DNA of 58,327 nucleotides, counting the filler, from Diploschistes diacapsis (Eukaryota), in assembly GCA_023645945.1 (NCBI GenBank). It is 5 parts of 5 records of this genome, joined end to end, with 100 filler letters (N's around TTAATTAATTAA, not from the genome) between each part and the next. Parts side by side here need not be neighbours in the genome. Positions count along the whole stretch, not along the records: positions 1 to 11,599 come from JALAIB010000817.1; 4 more parts are not named here. One strand, written 5' to 3'. This document shows positions 1 to 46,772 of this stretch, piece by piece (position 1 is the first letter of the stretch; each line of letters begins with the position of its first letter). The notes beneath the pieces are model-generated. The model was not told where the DNA came from. It did no database searches and saw only the letters and a list, made by a program, of their open reading frames with translations. A program made the position numbers and the translations under genes.

Positions 1-392
1 CCCTTCTCCCTCCCCTCTCCGGCAAAGGGATTCCTGAACCTCGTCCTCGCGAACTCGCTCCCATCCGCCCCCGCCGGCGTCCTCCCGTCCACCCTCAAGA
101 TCCTCACCTTCTCCCCCGCTCCCGCGCCACCAGCCTTGCCCTTCGGACTCGAGAATCCGCCCTCGTCCCTATCCTCCTGGCGCTGCGGCCACAGCACCCT
201 CTTCTTCCGCACCGCATGCACCATCAAGCCGAACACGATCCCCCACAGCACCAAGACCACGGCGCCCATGGCGCAGCCAAGCCACTGCAGCGGCTCGGCG
301 CCGAACGCCAGCCCCACGTTCAGCGTCGCCGTCACGAGCGCCGTGTTCGGAAACACGAAGCTGAACCACGTCATGCCGAACTCCAACCCACT

Positions 393-424
<32 letters not shown>

Positions 425-1999
425 GGTGGTGATGCCCCGTGAAGCGCACGCAGCTCCAGTGCGCGCCCACGCTCACGAAAAAGAACCAAAGGGCCAGGCC
501 CCACACCCACAGCGCGGCGCAGTTGCCCAGCAGCTGCACCACGCCGGCCATCAGCGCGCCCGTGCTGCCGCTGCCGCTGCCGCTGCCGCCACCGTCGTCG
601 TCCTGCGCCGGCCCGGCGCCTGGCCCCGTCCCCGCCGAGAGTATCGGCGCGGCGCCCGCGGCCAGCAGGACCAGCGCGTCGCACGTGAAGCCGCTGGGCC
701 CGACCGACACAAACATGGCGGGCCGGATGGGCTCGCGCGGCAGCTTGTGCGTCATGAGGCGGTAGATGAAGGCGGAGTAGATGGTCAGGGAGACGAGGAA
801 GCCGATGCCCTGGGCGGTGAAGCCCGCGAGGAGGATGGTTGTGAGGAGCCGCGGCGAGGTGGTGGCGGCGGGGAGCGCGGTGGACAGGTAGCCGGCGATG
901 GGCCCCACGAGGAGGAGCGGGTAGGCGGGGAAGACCCAGATGGGGGTCATTTGAGCGATGGTGAAGGTTTGGGTGGACCAGCTTTTTTGAAGGGGGGGAA
1001 TCAGTTTGTGGTAAGGGGGATAAAAGGGGTTGGAGGGGTTGGGTGAGGGGGTACTGACATCAGGAGGTAGACGGAGATGGAGGAGACGATGGCGACGGCC
1101 ACGTAGAGCCAGAAGAGGACGACGAGGGCTTGGTTGAGCCAGGGGCCTGTGTTGCCGAGGCCGTACTGTGCGACGTTGAGGATCACTGTGCCGAGGGAGA
1201 CGACGCCGCAGGGAACGAAGAGGGATTCGGTGGGATGGATCAGGGAGGCCTTCAGGGTCTCCGGGTATTTGATGAAGCGGATGGAGATCATGACGCAGTT
1301 GAAGACGAAGAGGAAGAGGTTAAAGATGAAGAATACGGCGCCGATGGCGTCGAGCCCTGGGAAGCGAAAGGGAACTGCGTAGTGTCAGCGTCTCCGTGCC
1401 CCGTTCTTGCGCCCTATGCACAAGCCCTTACTGGTATGCAGTAGGTTCGCAATGCCGCCGGTGGCCATAGTCATGGAAAAGAAGTTCCAAGTGAAATGCC
1501 TGACCCGCTCGTTCCAACCCAGCTTCTCTTCCAGTTTCACTCCCATGTGCGCGAGATGCACCTGGGTTCTGTCAAATGTCTCCCTTATCGATGTTCTCGG
1601 CCGTTCAAAGTCTATACGAAAGGGTGATGTAGCCATGTACGAGAAACCCATGTTTCCAACGTCCAAAGAACCCCATCGGCTTTGTCGTCGAGGAGGGTTT
1701 TTTGCGCCTGGTGTAGGTATGCCGGCATTGAGCCCTTCATGCTCATCCGGTGTCGTCATGGTCATCTCTGGGGGCACGGAGCTCTCTTTGCGACTATGAA
1801 ATCGCCGGTGAGCGAGACTCGGCCGACGCTCTCTGGTGGTGTTCCCGACATGGGGCCCAGGGCTAGGAAGTGTATAGTTTTCAGATATCGAGGGAGTGGA
1901 TGCTTGAGCGGCAGGTCGGATTTCGATTTCAAAAGGTTGTTCTGGTGATGCCGCTTGTAAGATTACTGTAGGTACGTTCACAATCACCTCGCCAGCCAT
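1..1999 (-). CDS. TDT/SLAC1-family C4-dicarboxylate (malic acid) transporter, Mae1-like; intron-containing; 3' end runs off the window
   Basis: RHFTWNFFSMTMATGGIA (ORF 1385-2026) and LIHPTESLF (ORF 1001-1291). The minus strand then reads MTPIWVFPAYPLLL, QGIGFLVS and RPAMFVSVGPSGFT. Start codon uncertain. Confidence 0.9.
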
Positions 2000-3040
2000 T
2001 GTCCAATTCTCCCTTGTTTCTCGCAACAGTCAAGGACACCTCTTAGATGCAGGGCACCATGCAGGAGCGCAATCGAAAAGACATCGAATTGAGAGGTCCT
2101 GTTCTCACGTAGATTAGGTTGGAGAGGAAACATTACGCTTAGTACGTGCCGCCGCACTGAACACAGGATCAATAATCTCAAGAACAATATCATCGGAACG
2201 TCGGATTCCTCTCTGCTCAACAAGAGATTGCTGTCGCAGAAACTTGGCGTCGTTGGTATCAATTCTCATTGGCCGTGGCGTTACCTGAGCCGCAACGACG
2301 GATTCAGATCTGCACACAACGTCCAACAAGAAGGAAGAGGGCATAAGTGCTTGTCAATACTATAAGGTTAAACCGCCAAATAAGTTATAGCGCTTACTCT
2401 ATCTTTGCAGGCAATTCTGTTTTCCCCAGCAAAAGATAGAGTAAACGCTAACATTTGCTTAAGAAACTGTCATGAATGTGGCGGCACACATCTACGTACC
2501 TGACTCACTACAGCTCTCCCACAATCCAGCGGATTATGGTTTCATAACTGGAATGCGAGGATATCGCAAAAGCATGATTCAAGCCACCCACAGAGGTCTC
2601 CTATGGCCGGGAGAACACGCAGCGCAGCACACAACTGCAAAAGTATCAGGATAGCAAATCGCAAGCGGAAATATGTCAAATATATTGCGAGTGAGTAGAG
2701 AACAAAGATGGAGTATACTCCAAAGCCTTGAGCGGCAATTTCTTCGGATGCAGGGAATAGCTGAAGAGGTTGGATAGAAGCCATCCGCTATGGATAACGT
2801 GCCTCCACAGAATTCGATATAGAACAAGGACAGGTCATCAAGCCGAGCGCATAGTGCAATGTATGCTTTTTGGGCCAGCTTACTATAACAGCCCGTGTCA
2901 GTGGTTTGATAGTTACCGAGCTCAAAACACTAACCTTCAGATCCGCCAACATCAGATATTGCCTTTATCAAGACTTCATCCGATAGCCAGAGTAGCACTT
3001 GTGCGAGATATCGTAGCTTCGATATACAGCACCACCAACT

Positions 3041-4042
3041 CTATCGCTGCAGAGTATCGACCCTATGTTTCCTCACCGGAGCCTTCCCCTTGCTCTGTCT
3101 CTTGCGCTGCTTCATCATGTGTGTATACATCACGTAGGATCCTATCAAGCGATTAGCACCGTCCTACGCTCCAGACACGTATTCCTTCTCATCCGTCCTC
3201 TACAATCCAAAAAACTCCCATCTTCAACCGCCCCGACCATGCCCACGAAAAGAGTAACGCAAACAGAATCCAAACCTACCAGGTACATAAAAACCTAGCA
3301 ACCCCCAGCATCCTACAACCTCCCACTCCCCCATCCCAGAATCCCTCGTCGCCAGCCATATATTCGCCATCTCGCTCGCAATCCCCACCGGATACAGCAC
3401 ATAGAAGGTATTGTACCGCAACCACGTAAGCACGCCCGGGTCAGCGCCGCGGATCGTCTGCACAAAGTAGCTGTACCGTATAACCTCGGTGGCGGACCAG
3501 GCCAGCAGCATGGAGGCGTAGAAGGGGGACGTCGTGTTGTGCGCGGGAAATGGGTGGACGATGGCGTGCACGAGGATGAGGCGGGAAGAGACTTGGATGG
3601 CTGTCGTCGAGATTGGGGAGCGCACCAGGCCTGGTGGGTCGGGTGTTTGAGCAAGTTTTCTAGGATAGAACTTGAAGGCGGGGTATGCGGGAATGCAATG
3701 CGCGGAGCAATCTGTCCCTCTGCGCCGAAGAGGAGTGTTTCACGTACCTAGAGCTGCATGCACGATTTCGAGCAACGCGCCTGTCTGCACCCATCGTGCG
3801 AAGTCCCCAACCCCACCGTAGACGTTCTGGTAGCCCACAAGGGGAATGAGAACGAGGACGCGGACAAGGACTGAGAACCACAGTATTGCCGATGCGAGGT
3901 TGTAGATCAACAGATATTGCTGTTGGCGCACCCGCGGAGAGGTGGAGGAGCTGGAGGCTGGAGTAAGGGTTTTCGAGGTGGTGCTTGTCGCGGAAGAAAG
4001 GGTGGGTTTTGAGGTCGGTGAGGTAGAGGTCGAGGAGATCAT
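3041..4042 (-). CDS. PHS1: very-long-chain 3-hydroxyacyl-CoA dehydratase (PTPLA family), 3 exons
   Basis: YLLIYN, VQTGALLEIVHAALG, QVSSR, LAWSATEVIRYSYF, LRYNTFYVLYPVG. The last exon GSYVMYTHMMKQRKR ends at TAG 3041-3043. Confidence 0.92.
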
Positions 4043-4591
4043 GATGGGATGCCTGAGAAATTAGAGGATAAGGGAAAATGGGGAACGCTATTCTGAGCTT
4101 TAGGAAGCTTGGGGAAACTCGGAGAGCTCGTTGAGAAATTTTCTGGGGACCTGGAGCTCACAACTCCCCACATTGGTCCAAGCACTCAAAAACACTCAAG
4201 GCATGGAACAGGAAGGACAAGCTCTCTAATCTGCGCCGTGCTCAGTTCGCGCTCTCCTTGGGCTCGCTGACCAAAAGTCAAAAGTGCTCGTCTTCGTTCA
4301 CCCACCACTGATATTTTGTGAACGCCCCAAGCGCATACACTCACGTTCTCGTTCTCTTCCGCACAGCCCAGACGGCCATGGATTACAAGAAGAGAAGGGT
4401 GGCCCGCCAGTTTCCCGCCCATATCAGCAGAAGACTGGACTCTCTCTACTACTCCATTCGAGATAACCGCTCCTGTTTCTGCATTTCTTGTCTGCTCTCT
4501 AACACTCTTTTGTGGATCCCATTGCTGCCTTTTCCTGTAGGTGCACAGTTTTACGAAACTCGAGCATCTTTGATCCTACGGTCACATAATA

Positions 4592-5377
4592 ATGGGCCCG
4601 CAAGATTCCAATAGAGGATCTACTGGCTCGAGCCGAAGCTAAAGGGTATAAACAAGGAGCTCATCGAGTGGAGGATGGCTCTAGAAATATTATAAACTAT
4701 CAACCTCAGACTCCGAGGGACCAAAATGTTGCCTTAAAACTATACGAGAAGTAGGTAGTATCATGCTTTACACCTATTCATGAGGTATACAGCTTACCTA
4801 GGCGACCAGATGGATAAACATCCTCGAACAGAACAAACAAGACGTGGGGGAGACACAACGTGGTAGTGACGCTCCGGCAGCACCAAGCCTTGAAAAGAGC
4901 TCTTCTCCTCCCGACATTGCCACTATCATGGATTTTATTCGTTTCCACGCCGCCCTTGTGAAAGGACTGCTTCACAAAACGGTCTGATTACCGCCGATTC
5001 GTCAAATACTTTTATAGAGTGGTTCTTCGCTGGGTTTGCTAGAGTTACCGGTAACCGAGTCGAGGAGAAAGTTAGAAAAGCAGCCTACCATGTGAGTACT
5101 CTTCGAAGCACAAAGTTATACTCGTACTGCTAAAGAAAACACTTCCAGTTTACAAGGACAGTTTTGGTTGACGAAGGCGTAGTATCTTGCAAGAGAAAGC
5201 CAAAGTATCTCTTGGGCAAGAAGGAGTTTATCCAATTCACCAAAATCGTTCTGGACCACCGATGATTCTATTTTCGTCCATCCACGTAATAAGGTTCGGG
5301 TTCCGTTTATAATCTCTGTCTTCTGCTGGACGGGAGCAAGGATAGGTGCAGTATCCGATGAGAGGAAATTCAAATAA
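4592..5377 (+). pseudogene. frameshifted, 3'-truncated tyrosine recombinase resembling DUF3435 Starship captain proteins
   Basis: Manual translation across frames and introns gives LLARAEAKGYKQGAHR, PDIATIMDFIRFHAA, TADSSNTFIEWFFAGFARVTG (about 4990-5052), EGVVSCKRKPK, FWTTDDSIFVHPRNKVRVPFIISVFCWTGARIGA (to 5350), then TAA 5375-5377. The downstream catalytic HxxR/Y half was not found. Confidence 0.72.
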
Positions 5378-6738
5378 CGCCAGCACTGGCAAAACAGCGT
5401 AACGTGGGAGTATGAGTCTTTTATTTATTCTACTTGGTTTACTGCATTCCGCGTAATGAAGCGTATCTATTAGATATTCCCATATCTGCCACCTTGTCTG
5501 TTATTAATAGGTTTCGTTACTGTGGACATATTTGCTTCGCTCTCTTGCAAGGGGAGGAGAAAGCTGCGCGCATATTTACTTTTACGACGGAAAGAGACTG
5601 GCGAACACGTTGTAATGACATTAATAGCGCGGCTTGATGGCTACACCTCCTCTCGACCTTTTCGCATATTATTCTAAAGCTTTCTGTTTATGATGTTTGT
5701 AGGTAGGTGCCCGCATTGCGGCCCGAATGTTGTTTTAATCATAGAGTCCCAGCGAGCACGGGCGCTGCTCACTTCAGTATATAGAGGTAATCCATTACAA
5801 GGCGGAGAGCAAGATTATATCTTAAACTCGATTTTATCTTTATTATCCTACGGGTCCCCAGAAAGACTGCTTTTCATTGGAATCGAATCATTATCGCGGT
5901 TTCTATCGCGCCCTAATAGGGCACAGCTGGAACATCTCCGTCGACCTTATCCTCCACAAGGCGTTGACACGAGAAGCAGTGGACGATGGCCAGTGATACA
6001 CTTTCCAGAATCCATGGTCTACCGCCTCGTCGTAAGAGGCTCGTGTGTCAAAAGAATTTTAATGACCTATGCGTCTTCAGAAATCTGTATGGCACGTTTC
6101 TCTTCATAGCTTACATTACGGATTGACGTTCTTTTCTGGTGTTGGCCTTTCTACAGATGACTTTCGTGATTTTGGCTTGTGAAGGGAGTCGTATCAAAGT
6201 CGGGCTGTTTCGTTTTCACGCCAACGGCAGATAACAACGTGAAGCTTGGAATAATAACTTTGTCTAAACCTCAAAGGGATTGTACAACAATAGAGGAAGG
6301 AGAAGGAAGTTATCGTTGAAACGTATACAGCGCTATGCCCCTTGCTTATTATCTCTCCAGAAACCCGTTCTGGATGTTTTGGGTACTTTACAAGCTTAGT
6401 CACACCTGTGTTTTACGCTGGGCAAACTCCCCGGCTCTGGGCACTTTTATGACTACGCAGAAATAACACTTGATGCTGCTGCGATTTCTTCGTCTGGAGT
6501 TACAAAGGGAATCCGGGATATCTCATGCTCTGGAATAGTCCGGCTCAGGTTTGTTGTCCAATGGGCTATCATTGCTGCGCCGCTTTAACATAGTTGCGTA
6601 GATGTAGTCTTCGCTACGTCTGACTCCGGACTATGGGATGTTGACGGATGGGATGCGACAATCTTTATATCTTCCTATACTCGGGGAAGCAGCTGTCGTG
6701 GTGCAACTCTACATTCTTTTGTCTTTCAGAGGCTGTCC

Positions 6739-6978
6739 ATGATGTAAACCCCAGTAGCGGCAATTTCCCGTCCCCTGTTACCTGCCTTTTGGGTCACTCC
6801 TTCTCCTCCCTCACCTTCCATTACTAGCGAGTCGGCATCGGCAATAGTCGAGGCTACCGCGGGGACCAGTGAGTCGCGGAAAACGAGGACTCCAGTCCCA
6901 GTCGCCTGCGCGCCGTGTCAGAAAAAGAAGATACCTGCAAGCGCTCTGTTTCGTTCCATGGGTTCTCATCAGGGCTAA
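6739..6978 (+). pseudogene. relic of a Zn(II)2Cys6 transcription factor N-terminus
   Basis: ATG ATG TAA, then in frame TPVAAISRPLLPA...RKTRTPVPVACAPCQKKKI. This is the first half of the CxxC-x6-C zinc cluster; the remainder is not recognisable. Confidence 0.55.
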
Positions 6979-7839
6979 GGATGCCCAGGCATTCAAGTAC
7001 TGAGAAGTCAAAGCCCACCATTGAACATTACACTCCTGCACTAGAGGTATTGGACGAAGGCGTTTCTTGCCATCGAAGCTCTGGATCGTGGATTTATAGA
7101 TCTAGATTGGGGTTCATCCAAGAAGTCCAAAAAAGTCGAAGATTTCTGCCGCACGGGCTGTCTTCCAAGACGAATGATCGTCGTTGACGGATTTCTGACT
7201 AGAACATATGCACATAAACAATTTGCGGATATGATGTTTAGTGGCTTAATAACAAGAGGAAGCAATTTTACTGTCTTATGGCCTGCAATGCTATCGCTTA
7301 CTCGCAGGATGATGTTGTGATTGCAGTATCAAAGATGTTGCCACGGAAGCCGCCGGAGAATAAGAGTCTGAAGGAAATCGGCGAACACAAAGGATCAGGG
7401 ATCACGGTGTGTAAGTAGGATAAAATGCGCTTTCACTTAGCTCCCTCCCCAAAGTTACAAGATAGGAAGGAAGGGACCCAGATTGCCTTTTACTTCTATC
7501 CTGAAACTTTTGATAGGATCAATTATGTCCCAAAGGTACACCTATCAGAAGCCGTTCCTGTTCAGAATCATCCCTGGTCAGAAATGTCTTCTCTGTATTC
7601 GTATTTGATCTTATTGCATCTGTAGCATTTTTATTAAGCAATTAGAATGGGTCTATTCATTTAGCGAATACAATTCGCAAAAAACAGAGGTAGACCCGAG
7701 TAACATCAATGCCGGAATTAAGATAGCGGAGACACTTCAACCTCATTTGCTTGCATTGCGCTGTCAATGATAGAGCACTGTCTCGATGTTCAAAAATATT
7801 CTGTGAAACCTTGAATGTGACAGAACAATAGCCCGATAA

Positions 7840-9205
7840 TCAGTTCTTCCATTTCCAGTGACGGCCCAACCATTTAATAAGATATACCAGTGCAAGAAGC
7901 ACTGGCACTTCGATCAATGGCCCAACAGTTGATGCAAGAGCCTGATCGCTATCGGCACCATATGTCGCCACCGCCACCGCGATCGCTAGCTCAAAATTAT
8001 TGCTCGCTGCCGTGAAGCTCTGTGTGGCGGAAAGCTTGTACCCGAATGCCAGGTGCTTTGTGACAAGTAATGTTATAAAGAAGATGATTGCAAAATATGT
8101 AACCAGGGGCGCCGCAACTCGAACCACGGAGACGACTTGATGGACGACTTGATGGCCTTGCGAAGCGAAGAGGATGAGGATTGTGTAGAGCAGTCCAATG
8201 AGTGACCAGGGCGCCGCCCATTTGAGGAATACGTCGTTATACCACGGATCGCCGATGAAAGCGCGGAGTGCGAATCTTGTAATGATGGCGGCAGCGAGTG
8301 GTATCCCAAGAAAAACAGCAACGCTTGTTGCGACGACAGAATAGGAGACGTCAATTGCGGCATCGGAGTGACTTATGACTTTTATGAAGAGGACGGCAAG
8401 GGGTGCGTAGAGGACGATTTGTAGGATAGAGTTGATGGCAACTAAAATGGCACAGTATTCGTTGTCGCCACCGGCTAGCCCTGTCCAAATCAGGACCTAG
8501 GATAGTGTTAGCGTACTGAGATACCAGACCGGAGCGAATTGAGTCTTACCATGGCGATGCAACGAGCCAAGCCAACCAATATTAGACCTTCCCGAAGTTC
8601 GCTCTTGTCTGGCAAGAATGCCCAGGAAAGGGCAAGCTGCCGCTGTAAGCGGACTGAAGGGGAATGGCCGGGGACGGTAAAACATACCATCAACAACGGA
8701 GCGACTATCCAATTCATGACAATGCTGAATCCAATCTGTACCCAGATTGCACGTTGCCGGAAGATGTGATGCAGACTTTCATACTTGACTTTGCATAGGA
8801 TCGGGTACATCATCACGAGCAGGCCGATCGCTACCGTGCTGTTAGCATGTAATGCCGATGCCAGAGAGATACAAACACATACCAATGGGCACTGATACCC
8901 TCACAAATTTTCCCTCGTTTAATGCAGGGCCGACCTTGGGGACGAAATTGCCGAGCAAGACACCAACTATCATAGCCAATAGAATCCATACGGCTAGGAA
9001 GCGGTCCAGCCACCCTAAGCTCTTATATACAGAAACTTTTTCTTTAGGTATCGGCCTGTCATTCTTCTCGGGATCGATTGTCATTGAGCGGCAATCGTTG
9101 TTGAGAGAGAAATTCCGATCGATGCGATCAAAATGTGGTGCAGACGGAGAGGAACTCTCTATCTCTTTCTTCAGGGACAATTTCGGGTTCTTTAATTGTA
9201 GACAT
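7840..9205 (-). CDS. ACR3: arsenite efflux permease (ACR3 family), 3 introns
   Basis: LGWLDRFLAVWILLAMIVG, IGLLVMMYPILCKVKYE, LREGLILVGLARCIAMV, AGGDNEYCAILVAINSILQ, QSFTAASNNFELAIAVAVATYG, TVGPLIEVPVLL. In-frame ATG at 9084; the ATG at 9205 is one base out of frame. Confidence 0.95.
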
Positions 9206-9555
9206 GAGTTAAATTGAAACAGTTATACTTAGGAGGCTGAAGTTTCGCGCGCGAGCTATTTATACCGCCGTGTCGCAACGATTGAGGAGTCTGCCGAGCT
9301 TAGTTGAGCCAATTATATCGTTTCTGTGACATACTTTCAATCTGTGACCTTCCACGTGTAGATGCTTATTCATAGGTAATTTCAAGTTTTGGTATTGGAA
9401 GCTAATACAACCTAGACTATGCTCTAATACTCAGGAACAAAGATTTACAGCCAGGAAAAAATTGATCACAACTCATGCAAGCCTCCGTGTGACAGTGTGA
9501 CACGTAGGACAAAGTATAAGGATATGCAGTAGACTATGAGAGTAGAGTATATATA

Positions 9556-9661
9556 CAGTCAGGTGCCAAAAGTAGTTAGGTACACCATAAGCGGCAGTAA
9601 AGAGACAGTCAACTCTTTACTGCCGCTTATGGTGTACCTCACTACTTTTGGCCTAGTACTG
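9556..9661. mobile_element. 106-bp foldback MITE (Tc1/mariner-derived), copy 1
   Basis: CAGT...ACTG ends flanked by TA, long near-perfect inverted arms and an 8-nt loop ACAGTCAA. Near-identical copies at 32645 and 33080. Confidence 0.92.
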
Positions 9662-9665
9662 TATA

Positions 9666-10418
9666 CTAATTCATATCCATGATATGAAATACTGTGGTAT
9701 TTTTGACCGTACATTGCCCTGCACCATCACAACCAAGCTCCACCCTAGCCTCTTCCGTATCCCTGTGCCACCGCATGTTGGCTATGATGTTCGCTGCAAC
9801 TTCGCACGATGTCTCGCACATGCTGTTTGGTAGGTTCAAATCATCTGTACTTGAGGCCTGCGCATGAGGGTCGGCCTGGACTGGGAGCTGAACAGACTCT
9901 ATAGAGTCATCCGTTTCCGCATTTGGCAAAGTATCTTTTGATCCAGAGCCTTCTACTATCAGAGACACATCCTGTCGTCCATCTGGCTCTGATGAAAGTA
10001 TTCGATGCGAAAAATGGAATACCGCTGGAGGCGAGTTGAACGCGCTATCCAATGGAATATCCTTTGCAGGCCGAACCAGACTTGGAGATACCACACCTCG
10101 CGTGCAGCTTCGAAGATGGTCTTCAATTTCTTGCCTTGTAACGCCTTTGCTGACAAGTAGACTGCGCAATCTCTCATTTTCCCACGCAATCTTGCGCGCA
10201 GCAAGCTGTAGCTCTAAACTAGCTTGTGCTCCATGTTGCTCGTAGTCTTGTATCCTCATCCTCATGTCCTCGATGAGTTCTTTCTGGCGGGCTCGTGAGC
10301 GGCGTTGATTCTCGCGGACTCTGACGGTCAAGGGGATGCTGCTCTTCCGATGACGTCGTTAGCCAAGTGGGTTGTTGGAAAGGCGCAAGAAATATCACAC
10401 ACTCACCTGCCGTGGCAT
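9666..10418 (-). CDS. fungal bZIP transcription factor with Cys-containing C-terminal motif; candidate regulator of the arsenic cluster
   Basis: Short exon MPRQ, GTGAGT intron, basic region RVRENQRRSRARQKELIEDM, zipper ENERLRSLL, C-terminus MCETSCEVAANIIANM...LGCDGAGQCTVKNTTVF. Confidence 0.85.
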
Positions 10419-10572
10419 GGTGAAATGGAGGTACAGAGTTGTGAAGATGGATGATCTAGATAAATGATCTAGACGGATGGACGAAGCAATGCTAGATAGT
10501 TGATTGATTACTTAATTGATACTTTTTCTAATTAGCTAGGAAATGCGGAATGCAGAAAGCAAAGACCTATGC

Positions 10573-10588
10573 GTGCGCACGTGCGCAC
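10573..10588. promoter_or_regulatory. perfect 16-bp palindrome GTGCGCACGTGCGCAC in the divergent bZIP/ACR2 promoter
   Basis: Seen directly, centred on CACGTG. Function is inferred only. Confidence 0.35.
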
Positions 10589-10808
10589 ATACGCGCTAGC
10601 CGTAATAAGCCTAGCGTACTACCCTAGGGCTGACAAAAGTTTACTTACGATGTAGCCAGCCAATCACAGCCGAGCGATGACTATCTTGTTACCTAACCTG
10701 GAATCATTCGTGCCATTCTTAAATGACTGCGATCGTGTGTCTCTTGTTCTGCATTCACATACTAACGATGTTTGAAAGATCATCAACCACTAATCGCATT
10801 CTGTGTTA

Positions 10809-11385
10809 ATGGCAGACGCAACAGAAGTCAAAGCCCCATGGTACGCTGCTTATCCAGTCGCGCGGACGCAGACTCCAGCCGCCATTGATCGAGCACAGCT
10901 TCTCGACTTAATCAAAGCTCCTCAAAATGGGAGCAAGAGCTATGTTCTTGTAGACTTGCGACGAATCGACCACGAGGTTTGACTTTTCCGGTCCCGGACT
11001 GGCTCTTACCTAGCTAACAAGAACTTGGACACAGGGTGGAACAATTCGCGGATCTATCAATCTACCGGCGCAGAGTCTGTTCCCTTCGATCCCAACATTG
11101 TACGCTTTATTCAAGGCCGCGGAAATCGAGCAGGTCATATGGTACTGCGGTATGATCACAGAATCTACGATGTCTTTCGTACATGGCTAATGGACTACAG
11201 GTTCCTCTAGAGGACGCGGAAACCGTGCGGCAGCATGGTTTGCGGATTATGTTGAGGATCAGGGGGACGATAGAATGCAAAGTCTGGTTCTGGCTGAGGG
11301 CATTAAGGGATGGGTTGGTGCGGGAGCTGGGTACGTCGCTATGATGGACGAGTACGAGAAGGACACTTGGGAGGAAAAAGAGTAA
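10809..11385 (+). CDS. ACR2: arsenate reductase, Acr2/Cdc25-like rhodanese fold, 2 introns (not in the ORF track)
   Basis: Spliced translation MADATEVKAPWYAAYP...VLVDLRRIDHE/GGTIRGSINLPAQSL...VIWYC/GSSRGRGNRAAAWFADY...GIKGW. It contains the CX5R active-site loop; TAA at 11383-11385. Confidence 0.9.
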
Positions 11386-11599
11386 GAATGTCAGCACAGC
11401 ATGTAGATATTCGTCATGGATTCTACTCTTCTAATAATTTCAAGCATCTGGATTGAGTCTCCGCAACGTAGCATTTCCTAGTATTAGAGAGGTTTAGCAA
11501 CCCTGTCAATGCGCTAGCTGCGTAAGTCCAGATATAGCTAGCGCTTCTTTTAGGGCCTTGGCAATAGACTAGTCCAAATTAAATAATATATTAAAATAC

Positions 11600-11699
11600 N
11601 NNNNNNNNNNNNNNNNNNNNNNNNNNNNNNNNNNNNNNNNNNNTTAATTAATTAANNNNNNNNNNNNNNNNNNNNNNNNNNNNNNNNNNNNNNNNNNNN
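11600..11699. other. artificial contig spacer
   Basis: N44-TTAATTAATTAA-N44 (stops in all six frames). Confidence 0.97.
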
Positions 11700-12505: not shown

Positions 12506-12769
12506 AATTCGAAACGCTTTTAAAATGTTTCTAAAATATAAGAAATAGGATTTACTTATTAGATTAATTTAGTCTATACCGAAGCGAATACAGGCTTATA
12601 TCGACGCGTAAGGATGGCAAACTAAATACTAAAATAATTTATTATTTAAGAGCTTTAAAATGATCTACTTTGCGCATTCATTGAAGCTTTATTAAGTGCG
12701 CAATGGCTTGATAAACTTGGTAGGTGGTATTTGTTTATTTGATACCTAACTACTTTTGGCACGTGACTG
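12506..12769 (+). mobile_element. 3' end of a Tc1-like DNA transposon with TIR (12743-12769), abutting the Copia LTR
   Basis: Aligns by eye with about 35433-35696; ends GGCACGTGACTG followed by TA. Confidence 0.85.
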
Positions 12770-13318
12770 TAGCTATTATTCGATCTATAGGGCTTTAAAT
12801 TAATTACTTTCAGAAATATTTTATTTTAAATATTTATTATTGTAGTTTTGCTATTGTATCACGTGTTCGGGTACTAGGGTCACGACGTTAGCCGAGACTT
12901 TCCCCGGACCTACCGGTGCAATCCCTGCACCCTTTATACTACTATGTTTCTTACAACCATAGGGTGCTCCTGAACGCACCATGCAGCTCAAGTCACTCTA
13001 GGCAAATGGGTTTGTGAGTACAAATGGTACGTCAAAAGGTACGAGAGCTCTCGAGGTTTGTCCTTGACTTGAATTATTGCATTGTCCCCTTGAATGATCA
13101 GGTTTGGTTTTGGTTTGTCTATTTCAGCTGTTGTTAGTGTCCGTGTACCTCCGTAGAGTGCTGGGTGTGTACCACCCCACCGGGGCGGGGCCACCAGGGA
13201 AAAGTGGCTCACTTGCCCGCGAGGATTCTACGTCCAGTCCAGCGTTACTCACGCAGGATAAACTGCCGAGACTTGCACTATTTCCGCCTGGGTTTCCTGT
13301 GCCCTTCACTCCTCCTGC

Positions 13319-23296: not shown

Positions 23297-23396
23297 NNNN
23301 NNNNNNNNNNNNNNNNNNNNNNNNNNNNNNNNNNNNNNNNTTAATTAATTAANNNNNNNNNNNNNNNNNNNNNNNNNNNNNNNNNNNNNNNNNNNN
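23297..23396. other. artificial contig spacer
   Basis: N44-TTAATTAATTAA-N44. Confidence 0.97.
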
Positions 23397-24655
23397 TGCC
23401 CTGCTCCCACCTAGATAGTTCCTTCTTCACCTTTTCGAATCTGAACCATTCAGCCTACAGATTGCAGCTACACGTGATCCTTCCAGATCAGGCTCAGCCC
23501 CTGGTTGTGTAGTATTCCTGTAGGGGCGTTCTAGAAATATTACAAACTTACTAACGATTAGTCTAAAAGGACACGAGCTTCATCCCTTAAAAACCAGTTT
23601 AACTAAACCGGCGGCATTATAGTCAGTTCTAATAATTCTAGATTAAATTCCGAAGACACGCTTTCTCAAATACTCGCGTATACCTCGAACGATTCCAAAT
23701 CTAATTCTTTTATTAAACACCTCGCTTGCGCGTCCGCACGACCTTCCGTCAGCTTAAGAACCTTTTAGTTACGGCGAATACGACGTTTACGTTAAAGACG
23801 ACGATCTTTAATTTCACGGAATTACTTTTTTAATTCTTTTTCTTACTTATTATCCTCGTTAATAAACTTTTCATCCTTCTCGATCTCGTCCCGCTTCGAA
23901 AAAATAATCCGTTCAACTACCTCCCATATAACAAAAACACAATCCTTCTTATTAAACTTAACATAACGAACGTATTTTACCGAAATAAAAAACATCCTAA
24001 TATAGTCGTAAAAGAATAAATAGTAATTATAAAATAATATATTTAAAAAATCTCGAAAACGAATAATAAAACCTAAACGTTTCTTTTATATCGAAGATAA
24101 AGAAGATATCGCTGTCTTACGATTTAAAATTTTCTTTTATTTAATACTTATATTAACCTTTTAATATTTATCGGGCCGATAAGATTGAAGGAAAAGGATA
24201 ATATTACGATTCAAGATATTAGACGGTAGTATTTAATATGTAACAGCTAGTCGGGCATTTCCCAATTATTTTTTATATATAGTTCAATTAGGCTGACGTG
24301 GGTTACGTGATGGGTAGAAGGTCGGGAAGATCGTTTTACTTAATTGCGAGTAGAAAAAAAGAACGGTAGTTTTATTTATTTATTTATTTATTTCATTAAG
24401 GGAGTTATTGGTTATATAAGAACGTCGTTATAGTTTTTATAAGTTTAGGGCGTGTTTATTTTTATAAATATTTTTAGTTATTACTCGGGATTAATTTATA
24501 TTTATTATTTTTATTTTTAGAGAGCCTTTTTTTTAGAAATAGTTTAAGATCTGTAATTGCTCTATCTTTTTTTCCTGCCATATTCCTCTTCTAACAGAGA
24601 CTAAACCTACCTTGACTCTACTCGTGTATACCTTGTATAGATAGAGATCATAACA
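23397..24655. mobile_element. AT-rich RIP-degraded TE nest ending in a Copia LTR 3' fragment (24520-24655)
   Basis: TpA-rich, CpA/TpG-poor, no ORFs. The end matches 12361-12501 (...ATAGAGATCATAACA). Confidence 0.7.
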
Positions 24656-25447
24656 CCATTCTCCATAATCATCGGTCATTATACTTGCTTACAGTTATTT
24701 TCCCTTGTTTTAATTGTTCATGATCAATTCTGATCCTTTCTGTGTTATGCTTTATCTGTCACTTTGAATGATTTGATCTGTCTTCCTAGTAGATTCAGCT
24801 GGTTCTAAACAATCTTCATGTACTTAATTTGTCGACTATTTGAGTTCATAATTATCACGTGCTTTCAACGACTTTATAATCATTTTCTTGGTTGCTTTCA
24901 TTATTGAGCTCATCAGTGACTTAAACTGGGATAATTTCTTCTAAAATCGCGCGATACTTAGATAACGATGCTAGGAGAATGATGGATAAATATCCCAGAA
25001 GAACTCTGTCAAGAATATCATTCTGTACGGGAATCGAAGAAGCTTGTGTTCAAGTGTAGCAAGATGGTACATGCCCACATGGAAGCTCGAGAGATGCTTC
25101 AGGTCAATTACGAACAAGCCTGGGAGACTTGAAGCTCTCCCGTGAACTTTCAGATTCATTCCATAAATTATATGAAACATCTCTCGAGCTTATATTGGTA
25201 TGAAATGGTGGAGGACTTGTTTACTGTGCAAATTGTTTTCTCTGAAGGTCACGTGCCATCGCGAGTTTATTGTGATGTATCCATGTGACCTGATGCTTTA
25301 TAGGAACTTCACGAAATCATTTGAACTGCATTTTTCTAATTGCAGTACGTCGGCAATGGAGGCGAGGCAGATAAAGCGCAATCCGATATTAGCATTGCGT
25401 CCTTGACTCCTTTTGGGTATTCTGTTACCTACTCCAAGATTGCGTGA

Positions 25448-32114: not shown

Positions 32115-32644
32115 TGTTGCGATGCGAAAGGCAAAAGAAGAGAGAGATTTACGAAAGCGGTCCTCAAAGGCTCGAGTGCAACAAGAGCAGCGCCAGAAAG
32201 CACCGTCAATCGTTTCATTATTGAACAGTTACCTGAGGATAACCTGTACGGGGGCAAGACCGTTGCTGCATGGAAAGTAGCTTGATCGCCTGAAAGAGTA
32301 CGACAGAGCGGCAGACATGATGTCAGGGGACGGAAGTAGAAGGAAGAAGCCGAATGGATGACTGGAAATCTGCCAGGCTCAGGGACAATGTCGTTCTCTG
32401 ATAGGCAGCATGGCTTTTCGAAAGTTCTTTTGGGATGCCACACCTGGAATAATATGCTCTATGCGGGCAATAGGCTCGTTCCCCGCTTTGACGCATGGAG
32501 ATCACAGCGGAATGGAGACTGGTGGCAAGTGCTGCTGTCAACTGTTTGGATTAGAAAGATCATGGGTAATGGTAGTAGTAGAAAGTTTAATCCATCTTTT
32601 GAACAGGTTGATATACCACACGTATATCGTATATCGTAATCATA

Positions 32645-32751
32645 CAGTCAGGTGCCAAAAGTAGTTAGGTACACCATAAGCGGCAGTAAAGAGACAAGTC
32701 AACTCTTTACTGCCGCTTATGGTGTACCTAACTACTTTTGGCCTAGTACTG
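32645..32751. mobile_element. foldback MITE copy 2
   Basis: TA-flanked, near-identical to 9556-9661. Confidence 0.92.
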
Positions 32752-33079
32752 TATATGTCACAATCATATATCGCTTAAAAGTTAAGCGGCGTGGACATAG
32801 CATGACATGACATGACATGACATAACGTGACATGACGTGGCAAATGATCAGTTCCAGCAGGTTGATTCCCCGCTTTCCAATATTTCTCCAGCCCAGTCTA
32901 TATGACGTAAGTGGCACAGAGCGTGGATCGATATACTTTTTGCCTTTTGTGAAGGTTCAAGTCCACATGGAAGGCAAATAGTATGACCAGAGCCTCTGCA
33001 ACAGATGGGCCCACATGTATGTATACTGTGGAAGCGAAGCGGGGAAGTTAGAGAGGTTCAGCAGCCTTGTATATACATA

Positions 33080-33185
33080 CAGTATTAGGCCAAAAGTAGT
33101 TAGGTACACCATAAGCGGCAGTAAAGAAACAGTCAACTCTTTACTGCCGCTTATGGTGTACCTAACTACTTTTGGCACCTGACTG
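33080..33185. mobile_element. foldback MITE copy 3 (end types swapped relative to copies 1 and 2)
   Basis: TA-flanked; starts CAGTATTAGGCC and ends GGCACCTGACTG. Confidence 0.92.
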
Positions 33186-33198
33186 TAACTAAGGCATT

Positions 33199-34988
33199 TA
33201 CAGGGGTGCTGAACCCCTGTGTTGATCTACGCACATCATATTGTGGTTTCACTACGGAGTTAAGCCCTAAGTCCGAAAAGACTTGGCAGAATACCTTTTA
33301 TTTATAAATCTGTAACTAAACAATTTAAAGACACCATACAATCGAATCACATATAATAATAACGAAAAGATAATTTATCTAAAAAGTTCTAGCCTCGGCT
33401 AGACTCTAAAGATCAAATTTTGAAAAAGATAAATCTTCTTTCGATCGAAACGATTCGATTCGCTTATACTATTCGAATTATTAAGATTTAAAACATAGAT
33501 CGCGTGATAAAAATCTCTTCACCACATTTTCTTACCGCTTAACCTCTCAAAAAAACCCCCACAAACTATTATAAAAATTATCGTTTTCGTCTATTAAGAA
33601 GCCAAAAAAACCTTTAAAATATACGTTATTCTCTTTCGAGTTCTTTAAAAATCTAACATTATCGATCAAACACTATTATAACCGAAAAAAACCAACCGAC
33701 CCTATTAAAAAAGAACAGAATCCCGATAATCAATCTAATATATTATAAACGCCGATAATACTAAAAAATTAACGTCTATATCTTCAAAATATAGATACTC
33801 GACAAAAAGAATAACAAATATTATTACAATAATAAACCGAAACCAATCAACTATTAATAAAACGTGTTGAGCAGACAGGCAGAAGGCATGGCTGGGAGTC
33901 TAACTAAGTTCTAGAGGGAGGTTCAGTTCAGCTAAACCTTCTGGAATCCCAACTAGACCGATTTAGAAATAATATAAATAATAAAACTTAACGTATCCCA
34001 TAAAGATAAAAATCTATAAAATAAAATAATCTCTTAAATAAACCTCTAAACTTTAATACATCCATTACGTTACTAAATAGGTTATAAGCCCGGGTTAGCA
34101 CCTGCTTTATTACGTTTAATCGTTTATTAAAACTACGTCTCCCGGCAATTATTACGATTACGAACGCGGGCACCGATTACGCTACCTAACGTAAATTAAA
34201 TCGAAAAGATCCAAAAACTTAAAATCTAAATCATAAAACCCTAAAATAAACTAATTTAAAGATAGAAGTTATATTACTTTAAAAGAACGCGAGACTTTAA
34301 TACGCTGACCTAAAATAGACCTAAATAACAAATAATTAGATCCAGATAACATCTATATAAATCAACGAAAAACAATCTTCTTCTCTTTCTCGCTAATATC
34401 GAAGTTTAATTAAACCACGTTAAACCTTTCGATTACCTTTATTTCTATTATAGAAAATCATTTTCTATATTATTTATTAATTACTTATTAACTACGAATT
34501 ATTCATTTAATAAATCTTCTTTATTTACGAAAAATAACAATAAAATAAACGATATCTTATCCAAAAAACGGCTTACTCCTATTTTAAAAAAAAAAATCAA
34601 CAGTAATAATTCGAACTCATACGTATATATCTTAAAAGTAAAGAGGTGGATTACGTTTTTAATAATCAGCCATTATCGCCTAACGTGTTTCACGGGGATT
34701 CCGGCTACCCCCAGATTCCGGCCACCTTAAATCACTATTTTCATCTTACATTAAATCTTTCTTAATAATGATTACCTCGCATGATAATAATTCGATTTTA
34801 ATAAAATTTAATATCAAAGACTGTTTATAGGCCTTAAAATTATAATTGAGACAGATCAGCCCAGGCGTGCCAAGCCACCAGGGTCACATGACGGGTACCA
34901 ACCGTGCCAAGGATGTTAGGGGGTGGCTGTGTAGGCGAGTAGGACCCGAACCCTGTAGGGCTGGCACCCACACACTATTTATTCCTGC
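33199..34988. mobile_element. RIP-degraded TE nest: possible pogo/Tigger DDE relic, Copia LTR 5' fragment (33865-33960), Fot1-like end near 34690, possible LTR start near 34847
   Basis: Extreme TpA enrichment. NADNTKKL near 33750 resembles NAxGxEKL. TGTTGAGCAGACAGG... is a less mutated version of the LTR start at 12144. ATTCCGGCYACC is repeated at 34698-34725. Confidence 0.55.
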
Positions 34989-35088
34989 NNNNNNNNNNNN
35001 NNNNNNNNNNNNNNNNNNNNNNNNNNNNNNNNTTAATTAATTAANNNNNNNNNNNNNNNNNNNNNNNNNNNNNNNNNNNNNNNNNNNN
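34989..35088. other. artificial contig spacer
   Basis: N44-TTAATTAATTAA-N44. Confidence 0.97.
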
Positions 35089-35696
35089 GCAGACGGGCGC
35101 GTTGTGTAATATTTCTTCGACGAATATTATATAAATAAACGAATAGCCACCGCCGAAGCATATTATCGACTTTTACGCGATATTATATTTTAAATTTACG
35201 AGCCTGGATAAGCTTTTTTATAAAATAATGCCTTTATATATATAATTAATAATATTAAAGTACTTTTAGAAGAATTAGGCGTTTAAACGTTCGATTATTT
35301 CCTTTATAACCCGGATCTGAACCTTATCGAGCATCTATAATCTACGCTTAAAGAGAAAGTTTTAAAGTTTTATCTAAAGCTTAAAACTATACGCGGAAGT
35401 AAAAAAAAGAAGATAAAAACTTTAAAAGTAGTAATTCGAAACGTTTTTAAAATGTTTTTGAAGGATAGGGAGTGGGATTTACTTATTAGATTAGTGCATT
35501 TTATACCGAAGCGAATAGAGGCTTATATCGACGCGCAAGGATGGTAAATTAAATATTAATATAATTTATTATTTAAGAACTTTAAAATGATTTATTTTGC
35601 GTATTCATTGAAGCTTTATTAAGTGCGCAATGGCTCAATAAAGTTGATAGGTGGTATTTGTTTATTTGATACCTAACTACTTTTGGCACGTGACTG
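35089..35696 (+). mobile_element. RIP-mutated Tc1 (DD34E) transposase 3' half plus right TIR (35670-35696)
   Basis: FL*NNAFIY (= FxQDNAPIH) at 35215-35241 and LYNPDLNLIEHL* (= PYSPDLNPIEHLW) at 35302-35340, in the same frame with 34 codons between D and E. C-terminus PKRIEAYIDAQGW..KY*. Confidence 0.9.
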
Positions 35697-36434
35697 TAGG
35701 TTCGGCTTTTGAGAAGTAGTACATGTTAGACGGTGGACTCGTAGGGCACTGGGCTGGTGATAGCACAATAAAATCATAAATGCACACAATCCGCTTACGA
35801 TCCTCGCGCATCTTGCACTTGTGCTTAATCTTATGAATAGAACTGTATGATATCCCTATAAAGGTCGTTTTCCAATTGTTTTAATGTTCAGTATTCTTCT
35901 CATCGTAATGTATTGAATGGGATCAAATCGAAAGAAGGTGCGAATAAAAATCTTCTGCCTGAGGGTTTCGACACCTAAATAATCATCCAATCAGATCATT
36001 TGCTGATATAAGCAGTACTAGCTTATTATTTGAAATTTACGGTTTCAATGATTGCCTTTCACAACATCTCTTCTTTCTCGTCAAAACAAATGAGTACCTT
36101 GGATTTTTCACCTTACCCTACCAATACTATAAAGTCCTATAGTAGATTCACGGAGCTGTCGGAAGATATGGAAAAAGGAGTAAGTTAATTTTACTTTTGG
36201 TTTTAATGTTTTATATTTACAGGGTTTGCCCTATGGCCATTCTTATTATTCAAATATCCCCACATATTGAGTTTATTATCAGGCCTATGTCAATCTGAAG
36301 CACCCTTAAATCCGTGATCACGTGACTTATCCGAACACAGGACAAACCTGGTGGAAATTCTTTCAACCTCGTACAAAGGTTAGAGTCTCGATACCTCTAA
36401 ACTTTGCACTCTTAATCATATCTATCTAATCGTC

Positions 36435-46672: not shown

Positions 46673-46772
46673 NNNNNNNNNNNNNNNNNNNNNNNNNNNN
46701 NNNNNNNNNNNNNNNNTTAATTAATTAANNNNNNNNNNNNNNNNNNNNNNNNNNNNNNNNNNNNNNNNNNNN
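46673..46772. other. artificial contig spacer
   Basis: N44-TTAATTAATTAA-N44. Confidence 0.97.

Follow-up and report, generated by a model that had tools for sequence, protein, structure and literature searches.

A decayed Starship-type recombinase gene beside arsenic-resistance genes in Diploschistes diacapsis: the possible wreck of a Starship-like element

Does a broken recombinase gene that lies 2.5 kb from a set of arsenic-resistance genes mark the former presence of a mobile element that carried them, or are the two simply neighbours? We have addressed this question in a window of 58,327 nucleotides, filler included, made of five joined contigs of the Diploschistes diacapsis assembly GCA_023645945.1; the locus lies in the first of them (JALAIB010000817.1, positions 1 to 11,599 of the window). 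The source of the assembly is a lichen metagenome, and the contigs of the window are short.

The recombinase gene extends from 4592 to 5377 (+) and, as judged by its phmmer, tblastn and profile matches, is a pseudogene fragment of a DUF3435 (Starship-type) tyrosine recombinase, the identity that an earlier note on this DNA had proposed. Its 64-aa piece at 5183-5377 matched 70 proteins at E<=1e-3 in a phmmer search of 1.84 billion representatives (best E 1.7e-14), and PF11917 was found above the cut-off in five of the 15 matches that were scanned out of these 70 (P0013, P0018, P0054, P0044, and P0062; E 8e-13 to 5e-32). A profile built from six relatives aligned with the relic in five collinear pieces, at E 2.5e-22 to 6e-6, which together span positions 8-203 of the 575 in the profile, and residues 4-199 of P0013 (577 aa) map by tblastn onto 4599-5350. 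The stretches that match relatives are 4593-4751, 4802-4984, approximately 4987-5103, 5134-5262, and 5183-5374. The nearest full-length relatives belong to lichen-forming fungi (Lecanora helva and a cf. Caloplaca MAG), and the predicted fold of P0013 aligns over residues 12-396 with phage integrases, with a TM of 0.74-0.77 measured on the integrase. The comparison with PF11917 had a divided outcome: relatives of the relic carry this domain, whereas the four relic pieces themselves matched 0 Pfam families at E<=10 and did not reach the PF11917 threshold, because of their insufficient length and because most of their sequence precedes the Pfam domain. The Pfam match of P0013 begins at residue 157, and by that measure approximately the first 45 model positions are left in the relic. 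A word-indexed homology search with a 79-aa piece returned 18 candidates, none of them scoring.

What is retained is approximately the N-terminal third of the gene, comprising its start, the core-binding (DNA-binding) region, and the first catalytic Arg box, CWTGARIGA. The ATG at 4592 lies 550 bp from the start codon (4042-4040, -) of PHS1, a core flanking gene at 3224-4060 (-) that encodes a 3-hydroxyacyl-CoA dehydratase of the PTPLA family (PF04387, E 7e-35). The earlier note had described a cryptic gene pointing away from PHS1 at about this distance, and our study agrees with it in this respect; all four motifs that it quoted are present in translated frames, and the stop that it placed at the end of the gene is real (5375-5377), just past the first Arg box. 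The match starts at residue 4 of the relatives with an ATG just before it, and the native gene start is therefore preserved. The frame is broken directly behind the ATG and again around 4985 and 5260; the frame-hopping translation given before is thus correct as far as these breaks are concerned, but part of the hopping is likely to reflect two putative introns, at approximately 4752-4810 and 5097-5148. Beyond profile position 203 of 575 there was no match below E 0.4, the residues of P0013 past 199 had no counterpart by tblastn, and the missing C-terminal two thirds were found neither by tblastn at E<=10 nor by a profile search, with all filters off, of the six-frame pieces of 4200-7900. A complete catalytic domain is consequently absent: the HxxR box and the tyrosine nucleophile region are unmatched, and only the first Arg box (TGARIGA) remains. 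Given the loss of the catalytic part, the frame breaks, and the premature stop, the relic is unable to cut or join DNA, and anything that it used to mobilise is therefore now immobile.

Further along the same contig, we identified three genes with open spliced frames, each of them with introns. The ACR3 arsenite efflux permease (7840-9084, -) has a four-exon open model of 362 aa (exons 9084-8883, 8830-8688, 8636-8550, and 8496-7840; GT..AG introns of 51-53 nt) that matches SBF/PF01758 at E 3e-22 and 1e-15, aligns with bacterial ACR3 ORFs over residues 18-351 of 379, and is identical to a bacterial ACR3 at 172 of 373 residues. The ACR2/Arc2-type arsenate reductase (rhodanese/Cdc25 fold; 10809-11385, +) has a three-exon open model of 155 aa that contains a CX5R active-site motif and shares 83 of 157 residues with P0105. 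Its label is given because full-length relatives carry it (24 of 41 have PF00581, and several go by the name of arsenate reductase (Arc2) or arsenical-resistance protein 2), while the exons alone have no Pfam match at E<=10 and no match in PDB sequences. In yeast, ARR2 has a CX5R rhodanese/Cdc25-type active site. The presence of both genes, as previously annotated, is confirmed. The third gene (9666-10418, -; two-exon open model, 230 aa), previously called a bZIP gene, is indeed an open two-exon gene, and its product has a basic stretch (RVRENQRRSRARQKE) followed by a coiled coil and, at the C-terminus, a conserved Cys motif; the bZIP label, however, is weak, and we treat it as a bZIP-like candidate regulator. 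The ORF has no Pfam match at E<=10, none of its 18 relatives carries a Pfam domain (one reached bZIP_1 at E 0.056, below the cut-off), and the CREB bZIP basic region matched it only at E 0.9.

The arrangement resembles the yeast ARR1(YAP8)-ARR2-ARR3 cluster, in which a regulator, an arsenate reductase, and an ACR3 exporter are likewise clustered, and differs from it in that the regulator here is not a Pfam-recognised bZIP, the CREB alignment does not retain the Asn position typical of bZIP proteins, and the three genes have introns. By homology with that cluster, ACR2 would turn arsenate into arsenite, ACR3 would export the arsenite, and the bZIP-like protein may activate both of its neighbours, ACR3 and ACR2. 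The GC3 of the ACR genes (0.45-0.55) is low yet within the 0.46-0.81 range of the other genes in the window, and as a sign of foreign origin it was set aside as not discriminating.

Between the relic and ACR3 there is a spacer of 2.4 kb (5378-7839) in which Pfam, profile, and tblastn searches found no recognisable gene. None of the 42 spacer ORFs of at least 40 aa (5119-7839) had a meaningful Pfam match, PF00172 included, and none had a tblastn match in 80 other ACR3 loci; in addition, the spacer has no DUF3435 profile match and no second copy within the window. The decayed ORFs and the dead Zn2Cys6 gene that had been read into this region are therefore not upheld. A possible CX2CX6C half-motif can be read near 6905-6945 if the frame is shifted, without statistical support. 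Sliding-window indices delimit a stretch of RIP-like dinucleotide composition at 4500-6500 (TA/AT 0.93-1.06; (CA+TG)/(AC+GT) 0.97-1.07; composite index -0.14 to +0.09). The composite index exceeds zero only in the windows of 4501-6000 and falls to between -0.3 and -0.9 in the flanks, and the arsenic genes are free of RIP-like decay.

We propose, tentatively and at a little under an even chance, that the relic and the ACR3, bZIP-like, and ACR2 genes are the wreck of a Starship-like element, the three genes being probably its cargo. The relic would most likely mark the 5' end of the former element, inserted approximately 300-500 bp upstream of PHS1 and reading rightwards, with the trio 2.5 kb downstream as its probable cargo; the cargo link, taken by itself, we consider evenly balanced. 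The PF11917 homology, the collinear match, the open trio, and the orientation of the relic, whose 5' end faces PHS1 while it reads inward toward the arsenic genes, count in favour of this proposal, and so do the RIP-like indices, since decay limited to the recombinase region fits a multi-copy gene family that was mutated while single-copy cargo was spared. Against it count the 2.4 kb of unidentifiable DNA between the relic and ACR3, the lack of RIP-like decay in the arsenic genes themselves, the results from relatives and other loci presented below, and the features of a Starship that our searches of the contig did not recover. We found no convincing pair of bounding direct or inverted repeats in 1-11599, in agreement with the earlier note, and the right side would fall past 11599, where the contig stops; no element end was located. 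The auxiliary genes DUF3723, FRE, PLP, NLR, and MYB/SANT were not among the Pfam matches of the contig's ORFs, a search that could cover only the 6 kb present in the contig, and looking for a 5S or tRNA target site with Rfam and tRNA scans gave only below-threshold hairpin matches on the MITE described below. No contig of the relatives X2 or X3 spans the region in the form of a joined empty site. The core of the published Starship arsenic cargo-cluster is described as arsH, arsC, and arsB; of this core, the 11.6-kb contig has an ACR3/arsB type gene and an arsenate reductase, but no match to arsH (FMN-reductase), which may lie beyond 11599. The derelict Starship-like island of the earlier note is thus sustained with respect to the dead recombinase, its orientation, its position, and the fit with published precedents, but not with respect to a boundary, an empty site, or an auxiliary gene.

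The precedents are close in several respects. Starships are reported to carry arsenic clusters repeatedly, often with a bZIP as an accessory gene of the cluster (PMC12256816). In Hephaestus of Paecilomyces variotii, a truncated DUF3435 pseudogene, hhpI, is described at the junction of an arsenic sub-region with an ACR3/arsB-type exporter and an arsenate reductase (10.1101/2020.03.06.981548); Hephaestus, however, is complete and mobile, with more than 30 genes, TIRs, and a TTAC target, and its arsenic region comprises arsH, arsC, arsB, a Pho80-like cyclin, and arsM, whereas in our locus the ends were not found and only ACR3, the bZIP-like gene, and the rhodanese ACR2 are present. The Starship Ariane of Botrytis cinerea Vv3 is reported to have Acr3 and a rhodanese ARR2-like gene at its 5' extremity, between two captain genes (10.64898/2026.05.30.728154), but it is an intact, strain-polymorphic element of 93 kb for which crosses show arsenic resistance, while the present case consists of a dead recombinase and the genes alone. 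Degraded Starships, such as a Tangerine copy in Xanthoria calcicola and Horizon with ToxA, are similar as decayed elements with one or a few intact genes in which RIP has been implicated; what sets them apart from our locus is that they were described from long-read assemblies, aligned with intact copies as well as with empty sites. A bolder form of our proposal is that the relic and the trio are a compact arsenic shuttle, that is, a small Starship-type module with its captain directly upstream of ACR3/ACR2, the same module being nested in Hephaestus (at the hhpI edge) and present at the 5' end of Ariane, and carried into this lichen-associated lineage and fixed before the split from X2; we regard this form as unlikely.

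The alternative that best survives alongside the element reading, and which we consider plausible though doubtful, is that the arsenic trio is an old resident of this region and that a DUF3435 gene, or a small element carrying one, inserted between the trio and PHS1 and later degenerated, in which case the trio would never have been cargo. The RIP-like signal, restricted to some 2 kb around the relic, is compatible with such a history. A comparison by tblastn of 80 other ACR3 loci (52 of which look fungal, with 497 kb in total and 24 of these 52 reaching at least 10 kb), also favours it: ACR2 was near ACR3 in nine loci and a relative of the bZIP-like gene in six, ACR3+ACR2 and ACR3+bZIP-like pairs being common in fungal contigs, while a DUF3435 gene within 10 kb was found in 0 of 80, and none of 62 long ORFs from these loci carried PF11917. 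As a rule, then, the arsenic pair is an ordinary resident. It is also important to consider that roughly a fifth of predicted Starship recombinase genes (8,369 of 10,771 are kept after a length filter) are reported to be fragments (PMC11162782). On the other side, a chance adjacency within 2.5 kb and in the inward orientation is unlikely because lichen-associated fungal genomes have few such genes, 1,508 being reported in 554 genomes (PMC13486527), and captain-beside-arsenic layouts are documented in Ariane and Hephaestus.

The close relative X2 bears on the same alternative. Its PHS1 is approximately 98-99% identical, and its ACR3 last exon and ACR2 differ by approximately 2.7% mismatch against approximately 1.8% for core genes (summed from contig alignments); X2 thus shares both arsenic genes at core-like divergence, a pattern that suggests that they were inherited vertically together and in which nothing points to a recent transfer. 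Contigs of X2 and X3 bridge a single large skip, which lies within the arsenic cluster: in an X2 contig with a depth of 86.5, position 8476 is followed immediately by 10442 (the shorter side of the join has 104 letters), so that the main haplotype of X2 is missing a segment of 1965 bp (8477-10441) that contains exons 1-3 of ACR3, all those upstream of exon 4, as well as the MITE and the whole bZIP-like gene. The idea that selection has kept the detoxification genes is accordingly to be qualified, since the main haplotype of X2 has lost the 5' part of ACR3 and the bZIP-like gene. From approximately 4270 to 7350 there is no X2 contig at >=85% likeness and almost none of X3; lack of cover proves nothing, and for this reason the gap was not counted as an empty site. 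One X2 contig has extra letters of indefinite length at 4222/4223, followed by 45 further matching letters. Run X4, which belongs to the study that also produced the source run, gave short conserved snippets only.

We consider it quite improbable that the DUF3435 piece never functioned as a captain here and arrived passively, through segmental duplication, transposon capture, or rearrangement, in which case the position and orientation of the relic would be meaningless. The gene breaks off abruptly after its first third, many of the database sequences that match it best are likewise short fragments (72-138 aa), and the contig contains the MITE and another repeat, all of which agree with such an origin; the preserved native start argues against it, as does a 3.4-kb stretch that has no second copy in the window. 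An erroneous join of a core region to an unrelated mobile region, conceivable for short contigs of a lichen metagenome, is very improbable, since a second assembly of the source run (from the same reads and hence not fully independent) has, at even depth, 1015-9579 in one contig with 0 differences and 9613-11511 in another, so that the PHS1/relic/ACR3 junction is not a chimera.

Derelict Starships, arsenic cargo, Starships of lichen fungi, and truncated DUF3435 genes beside arsenic genes have all been published, and our results change no concept. If the cargo link is true, the locus would represent what is left of a Starship that carried arsenic genes in a lichen-derived fungus, and a data point for arsenic clusters that move together with their own recombinase. 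Starships of lichen fungi were first described only in 2026 (PMC13486527), in a paper whose main text has 0 occurrences of 'arsen'. If the shuttle form were true, arsenic modules would form a self-mobile unit that recurs in different fungal classes, also among lichen symbionts. The locus is worth resolving with long reads.

The remaining sequences of the window can be described briefly. Its other four contigs, whose adjacency to the first is not known, contain no Starship-linked families; they have ordinary genes, including Ric8, a sugar transporter, CoaE, SET, RTC, and SSRP1. The MITE previously noted in the first contig is genuine: a 53-nt terminal inverted repeat pair (9552-9665), 89% complementary and with 8 nt between its arms, sits between the ACR3 start and the bZIP-like stop, with further copies at 32642-32755 and 33072-33187. 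Its summed depth in three runs (6127, 9982, and 444) is 50-100 times that of its flanks (approximately 115, 90, and 4). The contig end, also noted before, is real as well: the contig stops at 11599, with the N spacer from 11600, inside a repeated stretch (11481-11599) whose depth in the three runs is 324, 488, and 137 against 76, 87, and 3 in the preceding bin. Many loose ends are found at 11482-11485 and at 11597, and this repeat is the likely reason for the assembly break.

Our study identified with certainty a recombinase relic at positions 4592-5377 (+) of the first contig, in a cryptic gene that starts at 4592, to the right of PHS1. All four motifs quoted in the earlier note are present in its translated frames, and the proposed DUF3435 homology of the region was confirmed by way of relatives that carry PF11917 and of a profile search. 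The four relic pieces alone gave no Pfam match at E<=10, and a word-indexed homology search with the 79-aa piece gave no match. An exhaustive phmmer search of 1.84 billion representatives with the 64-aa piece at 5183-5377 returned 70 proteins at E<=1e-3 and 15 at E<=1e-10, the best at E 1.7e-14 and 74% identity. Fifteen of these 70 matches were scanned against Pfam: five (P0013, P0018, P0054, P0044 and P0062) have PF11917 (DUF3435) above the cut-off, with E values from 8e-13 to 5e-32, while the other 10 include three under that cut-off, the remainder being short fragments or unrelated low-complexity proteins. A profile built from six relatives was searched against 4200-7900, where it matched five collinear pieces on the plus strand: 4593-4751 (profile positions 8-53), 4802-4984 (55-95), the frame 4894-5130 (96-136), 5134-5262 (129-162) and 5183-5374 (153-203). 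These pieces have E values from 2.5e-22 to 6e-6 and nothing else in the searched region fell below E 0.4; the match is therefore far beyond chance. The nearest full-length relatives come from Lecanora helva, a cf. Caloplaca MAG, Aspergillus tanneri and a Geoglossum MAG. By tblastn, P0013 (577 aa) maps with its residues 4-199 to 4599-5350. In its Atlas model, residues 12-396 align with bacterial phage integrases at a TM score of 0.47 when measured on the query and of 0.74-0.77 on the target.

The description of this gene as frame-hopping was correct only in part: the breaks after the ATG at 4592, near 4985 and near 5260 are real, whereas two of the hops, at about 4752-4810 and 5097-5148, look like ordinary short introns and have GT..AG ends. 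The relic ends directly after the box CWTGARIGA, with a stop codon at 5375-5377. By comparison with other tyrosine recombinases, we assign the first catalytic arginine to this box. The relatives continue into putative HxxR and tyrosine boxes, as read from their sequences (HSIRRG and QSY in P0013), and the relic lacks these. Thus, the collinear N-terminal pieces, the end after CWTGARIGA and the missing boxes make the relic approximately the N-terminal third of a Starship-type recombinase, with the DNA-binding part kept and the catalytic part almost wholly gone. RIP-type indices cross or approach the usual thresholds only in windows within 4501-7000 (TA/AT 0.93-1.06; (CA+TG)/(AC+GT) 0.97-1.07; composite index -0.14 to +0.09), the composite index of the core and arsenic parts being -0.3 to -0.9. 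In the spacer that follows (5378-7839), none of the 42 ORFs of at least 40 aa has a meaningful Pfam match, to Zn_clus or otherwise, none has a tblastn match in 80 ACR3 loci from metagenomes, and the spacer has no second copy within the window; therefore, the dead Zn2Cys6 gene that had been proposed in this region is unsupported.

To the left of the relic lie a SLAC1/TDT-type transporter gene (3-2029, -; PF03595, E 3e-47) and PHS1 (3224-4060, -; start codon 4042-4040; PTPLA, E 7e-35). A short ATG-containing open frame at 4379-4614, between these genes and the relic, matches no family (best Pfam hit at E 0.07) and could be an untranslated leader or former element-end sequence. To the right, the order is the 2.4-kb spacer, ACR3 (7840-9084, -), a MITE, a bZIP-like gene (9666-10418, -), ACR2 (10809-11385, +) and a repeated stretch at the contig end. 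The identities of ACR3 and ACR2 were borne out, and the bZIP label holds only as bZIP-like. ACR3 matches PF01758, bacterial ACR3 ORFs align to residues 18-351 of 379, and its open model has four exons (362 aa) separated by GT..AG introns of 51-53 nt. The last exon of ACR2 has 41 longer relatives, mostly of 120-200 aa, 24 of which carry PF00581 and several of which are annotated as arsenate reductase (Arc2) or arsenical-resistance protein 2; the open three-exon model (155 aa) contains a CX5R motif and, compared with its database relative P0105, has 83 identical residues out of 157. For the bZIP-like gene, two exons give an open model of 230 aa. Its only match to a CREB basic region is non-significant (E 0.9) and none of 18 relatives of its product has a Pfam domain; they have in common the basic stretch RxRENQRRSRxRRKE together with a coiled coil and a Cys motif at the C terminus. 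In this genome, ACR3, ACR2 and the bZIP-like gene all appear to be functional. In an alignment of ACR3-linked bZIP-like proteins, this family without a Pfam model shows an invariant C-terminal motif, SCE.AA.II..MR ... LGC ... C.V.N, with members from Usnea florida (Lecanoromycetes) and Lindgomyces (Dothideomycetes). We speculate, by analogy with Yap8, that these cysteines might bind arsenite.

The position and orientation of the relic, together with published precedents, make it plausible that the whole island, relic and arsenic trio, is of Starship origin, a joint reading that we hold tentatively, at somewhat less than even confidence. Arsenic clusters are described as recurrent in Penicillium and Aspergillus Starships, with a core of arsH, arsC and arsB/ARR3 and a bZIP among the accessory genes (PMC12256816). 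The Botrytis Starship Ariane, reported to give arsenic resistance, carries at its 5' end two captains that flank Acr3 and a rhodanese ARR2-like gene (preprint 10.64898/2026.05.30.728154). In Hephaestus, the truncated DUF3435 pseudogene hhpI is described as marking the boundary of the arsenic sub-region (preprint 10.1101/2020.03.06.981548). A further account recommends the term "derelict" for RIP-mutated inactive copies and states that 8,369 of 10,771 predicted recombinase genes passed its length filter (PMC11162782). Starships of lichen-forming fungi were described in 2026, including a degraded copy retaining one gene, with 1,508 recombinase genes counted across 554 lichen-associated genomes (PMC13486527). 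The island is not a new kind of system; it likely belongs to an already known type in an under-sampled host group.

A somewhat less probable reading is that the relic and the arsenic genes are independent neighbours. Searching metagenome contigs with the last ACR3 exon gave 80 loci, of which 52 (57-81% identity, 497 kb in total, 24 of at least 10 kb) were taken as fungal. By tblastn, ACR2 neighbours ACR3 in nine of the 80 loci and the bZIP-like gene in six, and DUF3435 and PHS1 in none. The fungal loci hold 83 ORFs of at least 260 aa; 62 were scanned against Pfam, leaving out the seven ACR3 ORFs and another 14 whose loci are near-duplicates, and PF11917 was found in none of the 62, the neighbours being ordinary genes. 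Therefore, ACR3 and its one or two partners are as a rule a resident cluster, and a relic next to them, as in the first contig, is unusual. DDE_3 transposase genes occur a few kb from ACR3 in two fungal loci (L025:2880-4022 and L031:1784-2836), the second of which additionally holds a bZIP-like gene. That the relic is a passively carried fragment is improbable, and an assembly artefact is very unlikely.

The lichen-metagenome run X1, the probable source, matches the window DNA almost completely (0.99 of sampled words). Two other runs, the close relative X2 and the rock metagenome X3, share the window DNA in part. Summed from contig alignments, X2 contigs (depth 60-110) show about 1.8% mismatches over 13-4078 and about 2.7% over 7876-8476, 10442-10545 and 10665-11490. 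One X2 contig joins 8476 straight to 10442, a clean 1965-bp deletion (8477-10441) that brings the last ACR3 exon up against the sequence upstream of ACR2; the main X2 haplotype is therefore without ACR3 exons 1-3, the MITE and the whole bZIP-like gene. Undeleted forms exist too, since an X2 contig of low depth (4.4) and one from X3 cover 10032-10569 and 10373-10943. This makes the arsenic cluster polymorphic among these relatives: a close relative also has the arsenic genes, diverged about as much as the core genes, and in part of that lineage they are undergoing decay. No contig of the relatives joins across 4270-7350, where absent cover carries no weight. Upstream of PHS1, one X2 contig has extra letters between 4222 and 4223, followed by 45 further matching letters.

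The MITE noticed earlier is real. This 114-bp inverted repeat (9552-9665) has two further full copies in the window (32642-32755 and 33072-33187; 91-98% identical), and two 29-nt terminal-repeat fragments lie in other contigs (12743-12771 and 35670-35698). In three runs, the summed depth at the repeat is 50-100x the depth beside it, and loose ends mark both of its edges. Sequences of this family are very abundant in X1-X3. The last 120 bases of the first contig are also repeated, which probably explains the assembly break there. The 58,327 bases comprise five nearly equal contigs of about 11.6 kb, adjacent ones not necessarily being genome neighbours, joined by N runs around the TTAATTAATTAA spacer at 11600-11699, 23297-23396, 34989-35088 and 46673-46772. 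AT-rich stretches in other contigs (24001-25000 and 33001-36000; GC 0.29-0.34), one with two MITE copies at its edge, are possibly RIP-affected repeats.
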